Positions 6,757 through 12,403 of a DNA stretch of 16,725 bases are shown piece by piece (positions within the stretch are counted from its first letter, which is position 1; every line of letters begins with the position of its first letter). The stretch lies in the IMG/VR virus record IMGVR_UViG_3300013099_000164. One strand, 5' to 3'. The notes below the pieces were generated by a model. The model did no database searches. It was not told the DNA's origin and was given only the letters and a program-made list of their open reading frames with translations. This DNA is from a virus. The translations under genes and the position numbers were made by a program.

Positions 6757-8517
6757 ATGAAACAACTTTTCTTGTTATTAGCCTTTATAATGTTCGGCAT
6801 TACGATTCAGGCTCAGGAGTGCGGTAGTTATGTAGATCTAGTAGGATCTGGCATTGCCGGAGAAAGTTCTGCTTCCTTAATAATCGATGCAACATCGGTT
6901 GACTCTATTGTAGTAGAGGCCATTTATAAATCTACTACTCAACCATCTGCTGTAAGATTTTGGACCGCTACGGAAGAAGTATTTGTAGAACCAGTCGATG
7001 TTTTAGTTAGTGGACTGTTGGGATCGGTTAATAATGATCCAATTATTGCAAGCGTTTATCGAACAACATTGAGCGCCGCATCGATTGTAAATTTGGATAT
7101 TCTCCAAAACACTCCCGAATTTTTTTCCTTTGCAGCTTACGTATTTTCCCCGAGCCTAGGAATTTCTTCCACGGTCAGCGGGGATTTATATCATGTCTAT
7201 AAGAATGAAGATAACCCATTAGTTACAAACATTCCAATTCCTACTTCAGTAAATTCTCGAAATATTACTATTCGATATGGAATTACTGAATTAAACAATG
7301 ATGAAAGAAAAGCTATATTTACATTCGAAGCAGATGGAACATTGATTGAAAAAGAAGTGTATGCTTGGGATGATGGTATTGGAGAAACAGAATCATATAC
7401 GATTCAAGACGTATTGATTTTGGGTGTTCCTGGAAATGTGGATAAAATTATAATGACCCAAATTTCTCATAATTATGATCATGATGGAACTGGAAGAGGT
7501 GATTCTTGGATTGGAGGAAGAGTAATTGCTGATATTCCATGTGAAAAAGAAAAGAAAGATTCTGCCCTGTTTTGTACATATACTCAAGGGTTTTATGGAA
7601 ATAAAGGAGGGAAAACCTGCTTAGGCGAAACAACTCCAGAAATAATTGCAAGGCTATTAGCCACTGATTTAGTATTAGGTTTAGGAAATAATACTTTTAC
7701 TATATCAGCTGGTAATGTAGATGATGTACTGGGTATTCTTCCAGGTGGTGGACCTTCAGCAGTTCTAAATGGACACGCTACTTATGCTAATCCAGTAGGA
7801 TTGAACATGAAAAAAGGAAAACTAAAGAACACACTATTGGCTCAATCCATTACGTTTGCTCTTAACCTTAGGAATAATCCTGATATGCTTTTATTTAAAC
7901 TCGACCCTTTTACTACTCAGTTTCCGATGGATTGTTCTAGCATAGAAGCTGGGGGAATTCCTGGAAGCGAAAAAGAATTTAAGTTCTCTCAAGCTATTGT
8001 GGATTATCTTGGAGATGATGCAACAATAGGAGATCTGCTAGATCTTGTTAATTTGGCTCTTTCGGGTGGAGACATCGGTACATTATCATTAAGTAATGTC
8101 TCTGATGCTGCAACCCTTGTAAATGAGGCATTTGATGAATGTGTATACGTTACAGTTGAAGCAGAGGAAGAAATACCAGAAGTAGCTCCAGTAGTAGAAG
8201 TCATAGAGGAGGATGAAGGTACTGAAGAAGATGGTGGAACAAAAGGAACAACTGGAATAAATGATATTGAAGCAGGTTCTTTTAGTTTATACCCAAATCC
8301 TGTAGGCGATCAGATGTTTATAAATCTTTCACCTGAAATTAGAAATGTTAAAACTATTTCAATGTATAACGTAACAGGAGCAACTGAAAAGATTTTAACT
8401 GATAATTTTAATGCTAATTCAATACAAATCGATGTATCTGATTTAAATGAAGGAATGTATTTTCTAAGAATAGATGCAGACACCGGAACTGTGGTAAGAC
8501 GCTTTACCGTAAACTAA
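6757..8517 (+). CDS. Secreted T9SS substrate: signal peptide, large Ser/Thr/Gly-rich body, acidic linker and C-terminal Por/T9SS sorting domain
   Basis: N-terminal signal MKQLFLLLAFIMFGITIQAQ. The C-terminal ~80 aa (SFSLYPNPVGDQMFINL...GMYFLRIDADTGTVVRRFTVN) matches the TIGR04183/Por_Secre_tail pattern (LYPNP, GxYxxR, K/R-rich end). The EEEIPEVAPVVEVIEEDEGTEEDGG linker sits just before the CTD. Confidence 0.8.
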   Translation: MKQLFLLLAFIMFGITIQAQECGSYVDLVGSGIAGESSASLIIDATSVDSIVVEAIYKSTTQPSAVRFWTATEEVFVEPVDVLVSGLLGSVNNDPIIASVYRTTLSAASIVNLDILQNTPEFFSFAAYVFSPSLGISSTVSGDLYHVYKNEDNPLVTNIPIPTSVNSRNITIRYGITELNNDERKAIFTFEADGTLIEKEVYAWDDGIGETESYTIQDVLILGVPGNVDKIIMTQISHNYDHDGTGRGDSWIGGRVIADIPCEKEKKDSALFCTYTQGFYGNKGGKTCLGETTPEIIARLLATDLVLGLGNNTFTISAGNVDDVLGILPGGGPSAVLNGHATYANPVGLNMKKGKLKNTLLAQSITFALNLRNNPDMLLFKLDPFTTQFPMDCSSIEAGGIPGSEKEFKFSQAIVDYLGDDATIGDLLDLVNLALSGGDIGTLSLSNVSDAATLVNEAFDECVYVTVEAEEEIPEVAPVVEVIEEDEGTEEDGGTKGTTGINDIEAGSFSLYPNPVGDQMFINLSPEIRNVKTISMYNVTGATEKILTDNFNANSIQIDVSDLNEGMYFLRIDADTGTVVRRFTVN

Positions 8518-8523
8518 AATTAT

Positions 8524-8925
8524 ATGAAAAACGTATTTGTAATAGACATACACAGTGTATTAGACGTGGTGACAAACAGTTCTTCAGAATTGTTTGTTAT
8601 CTCAGACGATACTACAGTCACAGCGGTAGAAGATTTACTTAGATATTTAGTAGACACTTGGAATGAGATGGCTGATAAAGGTGTGTTCGGAAAATGGCAT
8701 CAAGAAAGAGAAACAGTTAAATATGAAAACTGCATGTCTGTACGCTTAATGGATCCAAGCGATGTTGAGCATGATGAGCATGAAAAAAGATATAATTGGG
8801 GCTATGAAGTAGAAGAAAATGTGGGGAAAATTATTATTGAAAGTACTACCGATAATTCAATTCCATGGGAAATCATTGAATGGATTGAATCTGCATTTAG
8901 TGCAAAACGGTGGCATTTAGGTTAA
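8524..8925 (+). CDS. Acidic hypothetical protein, paralogue 1 of a tandem three-gene family
   Basis: Its N-terminal motif VIDIHSVLDVVTNSSSELFVISDD is shared with the next two genes. Confidence 0.6.
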   Translation: MKNVFVIDIHSVLDVVTNSSSELFVISDDTTVTAVEDLLRYLVDTWNEMADKGVFGKWHQERETVKYENCMSVRLMDPSDVEHDEHEKRYNWGYEVEENVGKIIIESTTDNSIPWEIIEWIESAFSAKRWHLG

Positions 8926-8944
8926 ACAATTAAAAAATATAAAA

Positions 8945-9382
8945 ATGAAAATTCCAATTCACTCAACAACTGATTTAATTACTAATTCTTCAACAGTAAT
9001 TTTCACATACAGTGAAAGTTCAGAAGGAGCAGTCGTTTCAATGATCGATGAAATGTTTAAAGCGTTTGGCATTGATAAGAAATGCGAAGATGTTTTTGAC
9101 ACAGTAGTATTAACTGAAAAGTACAAGTATAATGAGACTGAAGATTTAATTCCTGAGGGTGTAGATGGCGATGCTGTCGAAAAACTCTATGATGATGTCA
9201 AATCCGGGAAGGTTCAAAAGCCAGATTGGTTTAATGATATCGAAAGTCACGAAGGATCGTGGGATTACTATACTCCTAGTACTTATCTGCATCTTATTCC
9301 TAAGAAGCCAGAATACGAGAAATTAGCAAGCTTAGTTAAAAACTTTTTATATTCAACAGACCATGAAGCGACAAGAGATTAA
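8945..9382 (+). CDS. Acidic hypothetical protein, paralogue 2 of the tandem family
   Basis: IPIHSTTDLITNSSTVIFTYSE, CEDVFDTVVL, GKVQKPDWFNDIE and STYLHLIPKKPEYEKLASLVKNFLYSTDHE align with paralogue 3. Confidence 0.6.
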   Translation: MKIPIHSTTDLITNSSTVIFTYSESSEGAVVSMIDEMFKAFGIDKKCEDVFDTVVLTEKYKYNETEDLIPEGVDGDAVEKLYDDVKSGKVQKPDWFNDIESHEGSWDYYTPSTYLHLIPKKPEYEKLASLVKNFLYSTDHEATRD

Positions 9383-9854
9383 AATACCGTTCCATTCGAT
9401 GATTGATTTGATCACGAATTCTTCAACAGAAATTTTCATTAATAGCTCAAAGTCTATTGAGCCGGCTAAAGAACTTTTAAGCGAGTTGCTAAAACTTGCA
9501 GGATCATATAAGACTTGCGATGAAGTTTTCGAAGTAAGTTTAACAATGGACACTGACTATTTAGTAGATATTCTCAGAGATCAAATGGAAAATTATGATG
9601 AGGAGAATTATATCAAATTAGGCCTTGATGATCTTGCCTACACAAAATCTTATGAAGTTGTAGAACAATATGTTAACGATGTAATGAAAGGAAAGATAGA
9701 AAAACCAAAGTATTTTGAAGAGATGATAGATGATATGGAAATTGGTATCAGTACATATCTGCATGTAGTTTCAAAGGATTCTAAGTATGATCATTTCTTA
9801 GAAATTCTTGAGAAGCTTTTATATTCACCAGATTATGAAGAAGGTTCCTGCTAA
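9363..9854 (+). CDS. Acidic hypothetical protein, paralogue 3 of the tandem family
   Basis: IPFHSMIDLITNSSTEIFINSS, CDEVFEVSLT, GKIEKPKYFEEMID and STYLHVVSKDSKYDHFLEILEKLLYSPDYEE are shared with paralogue 2. It overlaps paralogue 2 by 20 nt. Confidence 0.6.
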   Translation: MKRQEIKIPFHSMIDLITNSSTEIFINSSKSIEPAKELLSELLKLAGSYKTCDEVFEVSLTMDTDYLVDILRDQMENYDEENYIKLGLDDLAYTKSYEVVEQYVNDVMKGKIEKPKYFEEMIDDMEIGISTYLHVVSKDSKYDHFLEILEKLLYSPDYEEGSC

Positions 9855-9855
9855 T

Positions 9856-10734
9856 ATGATTAAAACAAGAATCTTTCCAGAACATAACTACAAAGGGATC
9901 CATATTAATGGCAAGACTATACGTATTGCTCTAGACCCTAAGAAGCCCATTAGTGAACTACAGTGGCCCGAGTTCTATGATGTAAAGGTAACACCTTACT
10001 GTAAGGGTAATTGCCCATATTGTTATCAAGATAGCCTCTCTACTGTACAACATCCTGATAATATAGTTGAGAAATTTGAATCATTCTTCTCACCTATGAC
10101 AAAGAATCAGAAGCCATTCCAAATTGCCTTTGGAGGTGGTGAACCTACTACACATCCAGATTTTTCTAAACTCATGAAAGTTTGTTATGATATGGACATT
10201 GCTCCGAATTATACGACAAACGGGATGTGGGTTAAAGCAGAAAATCAAGATGAAATCATGGAAACCACAAAAAAATATTGTGGTGGAGTAGCAGTTTCAA
10301 CTCATCCTCATCTAGAAAAATACTGGAAAGCAGCCACTGATGCTTATTTAGAAGAGGGAGTATTTACTAACTTGCATATTATTATAGGGGGGAAGGGATC
10401 TATCGATGATTTCGTAGAAATCTATAAAGAATATCATGGAAGAGTTAAGTATTTTGTGTTGCTTCCGTTAACAGCTCAGGGACGTGCAAATGAATCTTTT
10501 GTTGATTGGGAATATTTTCAAGAATCAGTAGATGGCAGTCCAGCCGACATTGCATTTGGAGCTAACTTCTATCCATTTTTATGCTCAACACCTTCCAGAT
10601 TTAAAGTATCATTGTACGAGCCGGAGATAATGAGCAAATATTTATCTTTAGAAGATATGTCTATTTATAAATCAAGTTTTAGTGAAGAAAAGATTCAAAT
10701 TAAAAATGAAAAGTGGGAAAAAGTATCTGCTTAA
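9856..10734 (+). CDS. Radical SAM enzyme of unknown specificity
   Basis: CKGNCPYC is a CxxxCxxC 4Fe-4S cluster motif. FGGGEPTTHPDF is the GGE SAM-binding motif, and a TNG strand motif follows. I chose ATG 9856, 1 nt after the stop of paralogue 3, over the overlapping track start at 9808. Confidence 0.8.
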   Translation: MIKTRIFPEHNYKGIHINGKTIRIALDPKKPISELQWPEFYDVKVTPYCKGNCPYCYQDSLSTVQHPDNIVEKFESFFSPMTKNQKPFQIAFGGGEPTTHPDFSKLMKVCYDMDIAPNYTTNGMWVKAENQDEIMETTKKYCGGVAVSTHPHLEKYWKAATDAYLEEGVFTNLHIIIGGKGSIDDFVEIYKEYHGRVKYFVLLPLTAQGRANESFVDWEYFQESVDGSPADIAFGANFYPFLCSTPSRFKVSLYEPEIMSKYLSLEDMSIYKSSFSEEKIQIKNEKWEKVSA

Positions 10735-10757
10735 CTAGATTTCTTGAATATATATTC

Positions 10758-10883
10758 ATGAAAAAGTTTAATTATACTTATATAACTACTAATTTAAAAA
10801 ATGGAAAGAAATATGTCGGGGATCATTCAACAGATATGGAGCTTAAAACTTTTTACAAACTCGGATATATAAACTATAAATGA
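10758..10883 (+). pseudogene. Truncated GIY-YIG endonuclease remnant (N-terminal motif only, 41 aa, then TGA and TAG)
   Basis: NYTYITTNLKNGKKYVGDHS matches the GIY-x10-YIG motif (compare I-TevI GIYQIKNTLNNKVYVGSA). No continuation is found in any frame, and a 128-nt untranslated gap follows. Confidence 0.35.
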
Positions 10884-11011
10884 TAGAAATTATGAAAGAC
10901 GTATTTGGATAGATTAATCAAAAATTAGTTATTATCACCAGGAGAAACTTAAACCCTGGTTATCAAGCTGTTCATAAAAATCATAAATATATAAATAAAT
11001 CAGTTATTTAT

Positions 11012-11653
11012 ATGAATCATCAAAGAGTTTATGACTCTATAATCCAAAAAGCAAAATCCGAAAATAGAAAAAAGAATGGAGAGGTTTATTATGAAACTCA
11101 TCACATCTTACCCCGTTCTATGAATGGAGGAGACGAAGAAAATAATTTAGTGTTATTGACGGCAAAAGAGCACTTTGTTAGTCATAAATTATTACTATTC
11201 ATACATCCATTAAATGAATCCATGAAGCATGCATTTCACATGATGTGTTATTCAAAAAATGGAGACTATATACCATCAGGTAAAGATTTTGAATACGCGC
11301 GTATTTTAATAAGTAATTCACTGAAAGAATCTTACCAAGGTGAGAATAATCCCATGTATGGCAAAAAACATTCTAAGGAAGCAATTCAAAAAATTGGGTT
11401 AAAGAGTAAAGGAAGACGTCACTCTAAAAAATCAAAAGAAAAAATGGCGTTAAGTAAAATAGGAAAAAATAATCCTATGTATGATCAACCTGGATATTTC
11501 ACAGGTCTTACTCGTTCTGATAAAACTAAACAAAAAATAAGTGAAAGTCTTAAAATGGTTCTTAAAAAAGAATGTGAATATTGTCATAGGTTTATATCCC
11601 CTAGTAACTATAATAGACATACAGATAAATGTAAATTAAAAAATATATCATGA
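11012..11653 (+). CDS. HNH homing endonuclease with two NUMOD3 DNA-binding repeats and a C-terminal CxC...H Zn motif
   Basis: HNH core ETHHILPRSMNGGDEENNLVLLTAKEHFVSHKLL. NUMOD3 repeats NPMYGKKHSKEAIQKIG and KKSKEKMALSKIGKNNPMY. The TGA stop overlaps the next gene's ATG (ATGA). Confidence 0.85.
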   Translation: MNHQRVYDSIIQKAKSENRKKNGEVYYETHHILPRSMNGGDEENNLVLLTAKEHFVSHKLLLFIHPLNESMKHAFHMMCYSKNGDYIPSGKDFEYARILISNSLKESYQGENNPMYGKKHSKEAIQKIGLKSKGRRHSKKSKEKMALSKIGKNNPMYDQPGYFTGLTRSDKTKQKISESLKMVLKKECEYCHRFISPSNYNRHTDKCKLKNIS

Positions 11654-11994
11654 CATAGATTAAACTATACATTATAACACGAAGAGATTTGTTACCCGGA
11701 GTACAAATGTTACAAGCTGCCCATGCCGGGATAGATTTTCAACACCAACACCCAGAAATTGCAAAGCAATGGAATAATGAGTCAAATTATCTTATTATCT
11801 TGTCAGTTGAGAATGAAGAACAGCTATTATTGTATTTAGAGAAATTTAAGTACTACAATCTTAAAACAACAATCTTTAGAGAACCAGACATTGGCAATGA
11901 AATAACTGCTATAGTAGTAGAACCCAGTCAAAAAACGAAAAAACTAACTAGCAAATTACCACTTGCTTTAAAGGAAATTAACCATGGCAATTGA
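11650..11994 (+). CDS. PTH2-family peptidyl-tRNA hydrolase; the full-length reading needs translation of an in-frame TAG at codon 3 (11656-11658)
   Basis: Translation from ATG 11650 gives M-T-(TAG)-IKLYIITRRDLLPGVQMLQAAHAG.... This aligns with the PTH2 N-terminus ([27 protein letters not shown] in archaea, [25 protein letters not shown] in humans), and the downstream core (QW...II-SVENEEQL...PD-G-EITAIVVEP) is also conserved. If TAG is not translated, only truncated starts are possible (TTG 11689 or ATG 11707) and both lose the conserved first beta-strand. Confidence 0.6.
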
Positions 11995-12403
11995 GATCGA
12001 GGTCGGGAAACCCCTTAAAAAAATACAATATCAGAACGAATTCAAAGTTCTTGTTAAATTTAGATATAGTGACGCATCTGAAGTAGTTATGGTAGATGCT
12101 GCAGATATGTTTCAACTAAAGAAATTTATTAAAATGTTGGATGATTGCTTAGACGCATATCCAGAAGGAAAGGGTGTGTTAGATACGTACAACCATGTCG
12201 AGAATTTCTGGTTATATGTTGAAACTTATGACTCTTTGAGTCATGAACAACAAGCACAACTTGATGAAATGGCAGAGGGTGCAGAAATTTATCTAGAATG
12301 GCGAATTGATCCAGATGAAGGAGATCAGCACCAGATTGATAGTTACACATTAACATTTTTTGATAGTAACGGAATTGAAAGAGAAGTAGAAATAAAAAAA
12401 TAA
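11984..12403 (+). CDS. Acidic hypothetical protein (139 aa)
   Basis: The ATG overlaps the end of the PTH2 gene. Confidence 0.55.
   Translation: MAIEIEVGKPLKKIQYQNEFKVLVKFRYSDASEVVMVDAADMFQLKKFIKMLDDCLDAYPEGKGVLDTYNHVENFWLYVETYDSLSHEQQAQLDEMAEGAEIYLEWRIDPDEGDQHQIDSYTLTFFDSNGIEREVEIKK

Follow-up and report, generated by a model that had tools for sequence, protein, structure and literature searches.

Radical S-adenosylmethionine (rSAM) enzymes of phages have so far been understood mainly through nucleotide-related members such as QueE and NrdG. Pairs made up of an rSAM enzyme and a dedicated protein partner are known from the maturases of ribosomally synthesized and post-translationally modified peptides (RiPPs; SkfB/SkfA, SuiB/SuiA, PqqE/PqqD/PqqA and MftC/MftB/MftA), from anSME and its sulfatases, and from the activases of glycyl-radical enzymes. 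Here we analysed a locus in the IMG/VR virus record IMGVR_UViG_3300013099_000164 (16,725 nt, the whole of which will be named hereafter the window), in which three small genes, p1, p2 and p3, share an N-terminal box with the core T-N-S-S (TNSS box) and are directly followed by an rSAM gene. The best-supported interpretation of the sequence comparisons is that p1-p3 and the rSAM make up a two-component module, conserved and confined to phages, whose box proteins serve the enzyme as dedicated partners. No description of such a TNSS-box and rSAM module was found in the literature, in agreement with the initial annotation, made from the sequence alone, which had recognised no described phage system with this arrangement.

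All four open reading frames (ORFs) of the module were confirmed on the plus strand, the three box genes preceding the rSAM gene. p1 (8524..8925) encodes a box protein of 133 aa (HLG type), p2 (8945..9382) one of 145 aa that belongs to the best conserved subtype, and p3 (9363..9854) one of 163 aa, while the rSAM (9856..10734) is 292 aa long. The intergenic gaps p1/p2, p2/p3 and p3/rSAM measure 19 nt, -20 nt (an overlap) and 1 nt, respectively. That is, the TAA stop codon of p3 occupies 9852-9854 and the ATG of the rSAM starts at 9856, exactly as the initial annotation had it, and the homologues of the rSAM share the same start Met, with the consensus MxKTRxFPEHNYKG. A simple scan of positions 8300-11100 revealed no terminator-like site and no excess of promoter-like sites; together with the gene spacing this would fit, if weakly, co-transcription of the four genes.

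The two components proved to be linked almost obligately when examined from either side. A profile built from p1-p3 matched 260 hypothetical proteins, and an exhaustive search extended the family to 1,794 clusters at 50% identity. Among 46 IMG/VR loci retrieved with the box-protein profile, ~43 carried an rSAM orthologue 0-3 kb away on the same strand, and in one of the three exceptions (L021) the rSAM was located elsewhere on the same 180-kb contig (L081). Conversely, 80 IMG/VR loci were retrieved independently by means of the rSAM (37-74% identity, contigs up to 508 kb), and a regular expression detected at least one box gene in 79 of them. The remaining locus (L062) encodes four copies in tandem, with Ser in place of the box Asp (HSITSLITNSST), which brings the count to 80/80. 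The two counts answer the search for the box next to rSAM genes in other phages that had been proposed with the initial annotation. Each locus carries one to six box genes. In most loci they immediately precede the rSAM; in at least seven (e.g. L122, L124, L127, L129 and L136) they immediately follow it. When all ORFs from -7 to +5 kb of the rSAM were clustered for 79 non-redundant loci, the box family was the sole family common besides the rSAM (78/79), the next commonest occurring in 18 loci, and no conserved protease, transporter or second enzyme was found in these neighbourhoods. Few phage gene pairs are so consistently linked across such divergent genomes. In addition, scanning 185,579 species genomes with the pattern [TIV]DLITNSST yielded three confirmed relatives only, all on short contigs of metagenome-assembled genomes, and the carriers of the module are lytic or jumbo-type phage contigs only. 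The module thus appears to be essentially absent from cellular genomes and restricted to phages. Because the pairing recurs in the examined relatives, and because both components are fused into a single protein in Salmonella phage Arash (see below), we regard it as an undescribed two-part phage system and not as a chance arrangement.

The box, whose consensus in p1-p3 is H-S-x-x-D-[LV]-[IV]-T-N-S-S-[ST]-E-[LI]-F, is located on the plus strand at 8551..8595 in p1 (HSVLDVVTNSSSELF; TNSS at 8572-8583), at 8960..9004 in p2 (HSTTDLITNSSTVIF; TNSS at 8981-8992) and at 9393..9437 in p3 (HSMIDLITNSSTEIF; TNSS at 9414-9425). The initial annotation had described a shared N-terminal motif in the three genes, and three approaches agree on it: residues H10, S11, D14, T17, N18, S19, S20, F24 and S27 (p1 numbering) are invariant in a three-way alignment; the six-frame translation of the window contains the string TNSS exactly three times, once in each of p1, p2 and p3 at 13-18 residues from the Met; and BLASTP connects p1 with p2 (E=7e-5) and with p3 (E=1e-5), both over the N-terminus only. 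The further blocks that had been noticed in p2 and p3 were likewise borne out, these two being full-length paralogues (BLASTP E=4e-19; p2-type versus p3-type profiles E=4e-42 across 147 columns). The p1-type profile, in contrast, aligns with the others over its first ~44 residues only (3e-13 against the p2 type and 9e-14 against the p3 type). Because the matches stop at this point, p1 should be viewed as a carrier of the shared N-terminal module, joined to a C-terminal domain of its own that ends with ...SIPWEIIEWIESAFSAKRWHLG, rather than as a full-length paralogue. To judge from these alignments, the common element is thus a module of ~45 residues (strand, TNSS turn, strand, helix), more than the 18-residue motif first described, and the expression 'three tandem paralogues', which holds over the full length for p2 and p3, is strictly true of the N-terminal module alone.

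Downstream of the module the proteins vary widely. Body lengths range from 47 to 281 aa across the family, the first 45 aa alone being common, and Pfam revealed no known inserted domain in the longest box proteins (170-281 aa). The subtypes can be told apart by their C-termini, which read ...R[YWF]HLG in the p1 type, ...FLYSTDHEATRDG in the p2 type and ...LYSPDY... in the p3 type; p2 itself carries the C-terminal motif FLYSTDHEATRD(G), and orthologues of the p1 type ending with R[YWF]HLG were present in many loci, often as the sole copy. About half of the box family has a conserved tail consisting of an aromatic residue or His, one further residue and a terminal Gly (tails such as xYDG, xYNG, RYHLG or ATRDG are seen). 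A terminal Gly was found in 52/107 box proteins compared with 31/811 background ORFs of the same loci (Fisher p=3e-33, uncorrected for relatedness). In an AlphaFold2 model of p2, the core (residues 23-135) was confidently predicted (>90), whereas the box (1-20) and the tail (139-145) had a predicted local distance difference test score (pLDDT) <50. That is, the best conserved segments of p2 are its sole low-confidence parts, and these conserved but non-packing termini look, in the model, like docking or substrate segments. The box variant (HS or QS before the Asp) is uniform among the copies of one genome, even though both groups include HLG-type orthologues. Such uniformity suggests evolution in concert with a shared partner or, alternatively, gene conversion. 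One representative of the family, P0393 (332 aa), is of double length with two matched stretches and is apparently a tandem fusion of two box proteins; the other long hits that were considered as possible fusions inside the window's own families (P0157, P0134 and P0092) turned out to be start-site or C-terminal extensions merely.

No match of the box proteins to any known protein was found, in sequence or in fold. Nothing significant was obtained for p1-p3 in Pfam, PHROGs or NCBIfam scans, PDB sequence searches with family profiles produced no relative, and Foldseek against BFVD returned only two uncharacterised members of the same family. Comparison with 50,697 phage genomes by blastn and tblastn located the window's box family in no cultured phage. 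Readings of the conserved motifs as SGNH, metallophosphoesterase or Ntn-hydrolase motifs were discarded, since motif order or fold size did not appear to fit these families. As for composition, the strongly acidic character pointed out in the initial annotation is real, with Asp and Glu making up 20.3%, 20.0% and 21.5% of p1, p2 and p3 and isoelectric points (pI) of 4.52, 4.56 and 4.41, respectively, but five other small ORFs of the window (at 1730, 2583, 11984, 13307 and 16388) are equally acidic, and acidity is therefore not distinctive of p1-p3. One of these acidic small proteins, the 139-aa product of 11984-12403, matches phrog_8562 (function not annotated, 1e-14).

The sole cultured-phage match to the rSAM was gp146c of Salmonella phage Arash (24.6% identity over 85% of the query, E=4e-11). 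This protein of 476 aa (L137 4431-5861), which starts with MYLTQIRYGFATNSSSSHS, is a fusion: its residues 4-141 correspond to phrog_28997, and the rSAM family phrog_16999 is matched by residues 188-457; PHROGs labels the two families 'unknown function' and 'Fe-S oxidoreductase', respectively. The protein is annotated as a 'methyltransferase' in GenBank, and Pfam detects no methyltransferase domain in it. The N-domain exists in stand-alone form as gp130 of Microcystis phage Ma-LMM01 (MLSIQVRQGVFETNSSSTHS...FFYKGN), two genes upstream of gp128, an rSAM annotated as 'Fe-S oxidoreductase'. A search with this second family gave 2,677 hits with the consensus MxKQIRQGVFETNSSSTHSICI...FGEFGW...GYVDHS...TGNDND...YYKGN-end, and in two huge phage-like contigs (L139 and L140) only 2-3 nt separate its gene from that of a 292-293-aa rSAM. 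The second family has a conserved body and is present as a single copy in each of the four examples examined (Ma-LMM01, Arash, L139 and L140). RNA ligase genes are found close to the module in Arash and L139, and in Ma-LMM01 a 'histidyl tRNA synthetase' gene adjoins it, a tRNA/RNA-repair flavour that the loci do not share in general.

Homology between the rSAMs of the two groups extends from residue 1 to ~287 (hhalign 99.5%, E=3e-23, 268 columns), including the N-terminal sheet with a common G-T-x-[IV]-R motif, and the enzymes have diverged to ~21% identity. Full-length homology of the window's box family with the Ma-LMM01/Arash family was rejected, as only the box aligns, and the window's box proteins gave no hit to phrog_28997 in a hidden Markov model search. 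What both box families have in common is T-N-S-S-[ST] at the same N-terminal offset, a conserved extreme C-terminus and the same enzyme partner, and on these comparisons a common origin of the two families is probable, though not proven. If the module is defined by T-N-S-S-[ST] located 10-20 residues from the N-terminus of a protein encoded beside an rSAM of this clade or fused to it, the window carries both features.

The enzyme belongs to the Radical SAM superfamily (PF04055), as it displays the CX3CX2C motif (residues 49-56; Pfam Radical_SAM match 3.4e-9), a GGE-type SAM-binding motif and a partial TIM-barrel fold. The three cysteines of the [4Fe-4S]/SAM cluster motif (C49, C53 and C56; 10000..10023, plus strand) were read in the sequence, and 66 homologues show no variation in the corresponding columns. 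The partial barrel is preceded by a three-strand sheet at the N-terminus (residues 3-24, motif G-x-T-x-R) and followed by a C-terminal beta region without cysteine ligands; invariant cysteines of the family number four only (49, 53, 56 and 142), none of them in the C-terminal 90 residues. Searching with the rSAM retrieved 897 homologues, all of ~280-300 aa and bearing automatic names only, such as 'organic radical activating enzyme', the best 120 being 59-99% identical. Its nearest structural neighbours are the peptide (RiPP) maturases SkfB and SuiB. All specific NCBIfam models, including those for viperin, PqqE, MftC, anSME-like proteins, NrdG, PflA and MoaA, scored far under their cut-offs and matched the N-terminal part only (within residues ~31-164). 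Maturase models reached 17-33 bits versus cut-offs of 265-650 (residues ~32-149 only), the viperin model NF038283 37.7 bits versus 180 (residues 45-142 only), and the activase models TIGR02493, TIGR02491 and TIGR02495 17.4 versus 231.75, 19.2 versus 126.1 and 25.5 versus 131.15, respectively. No QueE model was among the 25 NCBIfam matches listed for the rSAM, no QueE equivalog match with a queC/queD/folE context was found, and no full-length match to viperin/pVip was obtained. With no QueE match listed and the other models under their cut-offs, identities as QueE, NrdG or viperin were rejected. The initial annotation had named in advance two findings that would speak against it, namely a known family for the small proteins and a QueE or NrdG identity for the enzyme; neither was made.

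The highly conserved rSAM gene is also a place where mobile endonucleases cluster. Directly 3′ of it in the window, positions 10713-10883 encode a remnant of 56 aa whose N-terminal motif is of the GIY-YIG type (FNYTYITTNLKNGKKYVGDHS; SegE_GIY-YIG E=0.0033), followed at 11012-11653 by an HNH-NUMOD3 homing endonuclease that is intact. The rSAM gene of several relatives is split at the third cluster cysteine (L013, 10296-12561, with the same site in L012/L070, L063, L106 and L134), and in L041 it is split at a different site. The first ORF of the split gene ends with ...CPYC followed by FVGDTRINTL..., which resembles the N-terminus of an intein; a free-standing HNH endonuclease ORF comes next, and the last ORF has ...GVLVHN before CYQDS... 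and then resumes the rSAM. By its sequence this arrangement resembles a 'fractured gene', in which a homing endonuclease separates the two halves of a split intein. A group I intron was rejected as the cause of the split genes, as there was no Rfam hit and the borders are intein-like instead.

The box proteins and the enzyme differ in their rate of change. Among phages whose rSAM is 62-74% identical to that of the window (L001, L010, L011 and L012), full-length identity was 47-63% for p2, 37-47% for p3 and 29-39% for p1, the p1 of L011 aligning in fragments only; by this measure the small box proteins evolve faster than the rSAM. Each subtype has orthologues in distant phages; the triplication is therefore old, and the copies are under purifying selection and not recent duplicates.

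Taking the comparative evidence together, we propose with moderate confidence that the rSAM has the box proteins as its dedicated partners and, most probably, as its protein substrates. In this scheme the N-terminal module, being flexible, would bind to the rSAM, plausibly by strand addition to the conserved three-strand sheet of the enzyme, the 5′-deoxyadenosyl radical would abstract a hydrogen within the invariant box or, possibly, within the C-terminal tail, and the result would be a one-off post-translational modification that matures the box protein. The logic would be that of anSME with a sulfatase, of an activase with a glycyl-radical enzyme or of a RiPP maturase with several leader-bearing precursors. 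The substrate version is favoured because an invariant polar pentapeptide that is kept at ~21% rSAM identity is typical of a site of chemistry, and because a one-time maturation is compatible with the fusion in Arash. The biological role could possibly lie in host takeover or counter-defence. The initial annotation had raised the possibility that the paralogues are partners or substrates of the rSAM, with their conserved N-terminal motif as a recognition sequence; this is supported by the reciprocal linkage, the Arash fusion and the RiPP-maturase-like fold, an adaptor role may also be compatible with these, and it is from the comparisons above that we infer physical binding and a modification. 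Several observations count against the box proteins being substrates. Support for this reading is comparative throughout; the rSAM is devoid of the SPASM/Twitch auxiliary clusters used by most peptide-modifying rSAMs; C142, one of the four invariant cysteines, is not kept in the Ma-LMM01 branch; the partners, with 100-280 aa, are folded proteins and not short peptides; the low pLDDT at the box of p2 may partly come from a shallow alignment (68 sequences); and the box proteins of the two groups align over the box only (hhalign 19 columns, P=2e-4, probability 47%). Furthermore, an N-terminal fusion on an rSAM enzyme is the usual place of recognition domains (PqqD/RRE type) or of electron-donor domains (flavodoxin in TYW1), and the N-terminal fusion in Arash therefore favours a 'subunit' over a 'substrate'.

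In the main rival explanation the box proteins would be adaptor or specificity subunits, which would themselves stay unmodified and plug their N-module into the rSAM, perhaps completing its active site, while their variable bodies recruit targets such as host proteins, nucleic acids or metabolites, in the manner of PqqD/MftB-type chaperones or F-box adaptors. A modular build with a constant ~45-aa N-module and different C-domains, 1-6 paralogues per genome for one rSAM, obligate linkage, and the location of the Arash box domain where RRE/PqqD-like domains sit in RiPP maturases would all agree with such a role; yet no PqqD/RRE signature or fold was found, no candidate gene for a third-party substrate is conserved in the neighbourhood, and a polar pentapeptide invariant at ~21% rSAM identity resembles a site of chemistry more than a docking surface, so that we consider adaptors possible but rather unlikely. 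The same N-terminal position in eukaryotic TYW1 could suggest that the acidic box proteins, of ~150 aa and with a Ser/Thr-rich loop after the first strand, are flavodoxin-like reductants feeding the rSAM cluster. This is the least probable of the explanations considered: no flavodoxin or NrdI hit was obtained in Pfam at E<=0.1, neither the five-strand alpha/beta fold nor the FMN (flavin mononucleotide) phosphate loop T/S-x-T-G-x-T was recognised, bodies of 47-281 aa with only the first 45 aa in common are incompatible with a cofactor-binding fold, and several paralogues would be redundant.

Two further explanations would make the rSAM a mere neighbour. The initial annotation had suggested, as the first of two readings, rapid divergence in an anti-defence arms race, in which p1-p3 would be acidic DNA mimics or other immunity inhibitors. 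That they are small, acidic (pI 4.4-4.6) and tandem, that copy number and bodies differ between phages, and that the family is phage-restricted (three hits in 185,579 species genomes) could all be expected of such inhibitors; the orthology of the subtypes across distant phages, however, makes the triplication old, the conserved parts are the uncharged box and tail whereas the acidity is ordinary for this window, the searches brought up neither Ocr or ArdA nor any other known fold or sequence, and both the 80/80 linkage and the rSAM fusion would be left unexplained. The arms-race proposal, including DNA mimicry, is thus not supported and improbable, while an anti-defence role of the module as a whole is possible. 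Alternatively, the box could be a packaging or export signal on unrelated cargo, like that of the T4 internal proteins IPI, IPII and IPIII, with inherited synteny accounting for the rSAM linkage. A constant N-terminal segment on variable tandem small proteins would fit this, as would the fact that some carrier contigs are T4-like (e.g. L005, with a prohead protease S77). The linkage persists, though, where neighbourhoods share nothing else, the arrangement is also present in Ma-LMM01, which is not T4-like, and the box is fused to the rSAM itself in Arash; in addition, the Glu seen after the box in the window's family is missing from the Ma-LMM01 family (TNSSSTHS), and visual inspection picked out no T4-type L/I-x-E cleavage motif. 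A targeting signal is thus very improbable.

Apart from the module, the window (G+C 34%, with every long ORF on the plus strand) encodes, besides the homing endonuclease mentioned above, a PTH2-type peptidyl-tRNA hydrolase (11689-11994, 7.8e-8) and a thioredoxin (14677-15033, 6e-25). The three consecutive proteins encoded at 5793-8517 have signal-peptide or lipoprotein-like N-termini, and the third of these (6757-8517, 586 aa) has a type IX secretion Por_Secre_tail sorting domain (9e-15) at its end. This suggests that the host belongs to the Bacteroidota and that the phage encodes a secreted or surface protein. Overall, the gene content looks like that of a phage of a Bacteroidota-type host. 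The 811-aa product of 3242-5677 matches eukaryote-type major vault protein domains (MVP_shoulder 2e-29, Vault_3 2e-10) and SPFH/Band 7; it has no PHROG match and is unexpected in a phage-like contig.

The module brings together two unnamed families, i.e. an rSAM clade with 897 homologues and the box proteins with ~1,800 clusters, the second family contributing ~2,700 more; the counterpart families of cultured phages are unstudied and add no functional knowledge. If the box proteins are substrates, the TNSS box would mark a new protein modification and show how an rSAM free of auxiliary clusters handles folded protein substrates; if they are adaptors, the module would be a programmable radical enzyme. 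We tentatively entertain, as a doubtful but possible generalisation, a new class in which an auxiliary-cluster-free rSAM uses a T-N-S-S-[ST] module as a universal handle, either installing an undescribed radical modification on phage effectors or being steered to host targets by interchangeable adaptors, with paralogue number and bodies diversifying along with the targets. As the module is present in culturable systems, as a single fused gene in Salmonella phage Arash and in Microcystis phage Ma-LMM01, it is directly testable.

Compared with known systems, the tandem small genes by themselves recall the T4 internal proteins (IPI/IPII/IPIII), which are also small, variable phage proteins sharing an N-terminal segment only; those are not linked to an rSAM, however, whereas the window's box belongs to a module of ~45 residues whose polar core is invariant, and in one phage it is joined to the enzyme in a single protein. 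DNA mimics such as Ocr and ArdA, which imitate the charge of B-DNA, are likewise small and acidic, but p1-p3 show no sequence or fold similarity to them, and the conservation of p1-p3 lies in uncharged termini and in an obligate rSAM pairing. The anSME/sulfatase pairs (motif C/S-x-P/A-x-R, or C/S-x-P-x-R in the sulfatase) and the activase/glycyl-radical enzyme pairs (RVxG[FWY]) are closer, in that a short invariant motif of the partner outlasts deep divergence, a one-off maturation would tolerate the Arash fusion, and the Ma-LMM01-type family has enzyme-like invariant motifs (FGEFGW, GYVDHS and TGNDND). The motif of the module is T-N-S-S-[ST], though, with no Cys and no conserved Gly in the box; the rSAM has neither a SPASM domain with two auxiliary clusters, as in anSME, nor a PFL-AE (PflA) or NrdG score above cut-off, and the partners have no sulfatase or glycyl-radical domain, p1-p3 giving no Gly_radical hit and containing no RVxG[FWY] motif. 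With the RiPP maturases the module shares the nearest structural neighbours of its rSAM (SkfB and SuiB), several paralogous partner genes that have a constant N-terminal segment and immediately precede a single rSAM gene and, in the model, partners whose conserved N- and C-terminal segments appear flexible. It differs from them in having no C-terminal SPASM/Twitch auxiliary-cluster cysteines, the hallmark of SkfB, SuiB, PqqE, MftC and the sactisynthases, no PqqD-like RRE domain, either fused or stand-alone, and maturase-model scores far below cut-offs; its partners are folded proteins of 100-280 aa instead of short precursors, no leader protease or exporter is conserved nearby (no third family was found in the 79 loci), and it occurs on lytic or jumbo-type phage contigs only. 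The closest relatives are Ma-LMM01 gp130/gp128 and Arash gp146c, which have TNSS[ST] at the same offset, a conserved extreme C-terminus and an rSAM homologous over its full length, and which differ in box proteins that align over the box only, in a single copy with a conserved body and in phrog_28997, to which the window gives no hit. The module therefore works most like an rSAM maturase with a dedicated protein partner, while standing outside each of the named families by their defining features.

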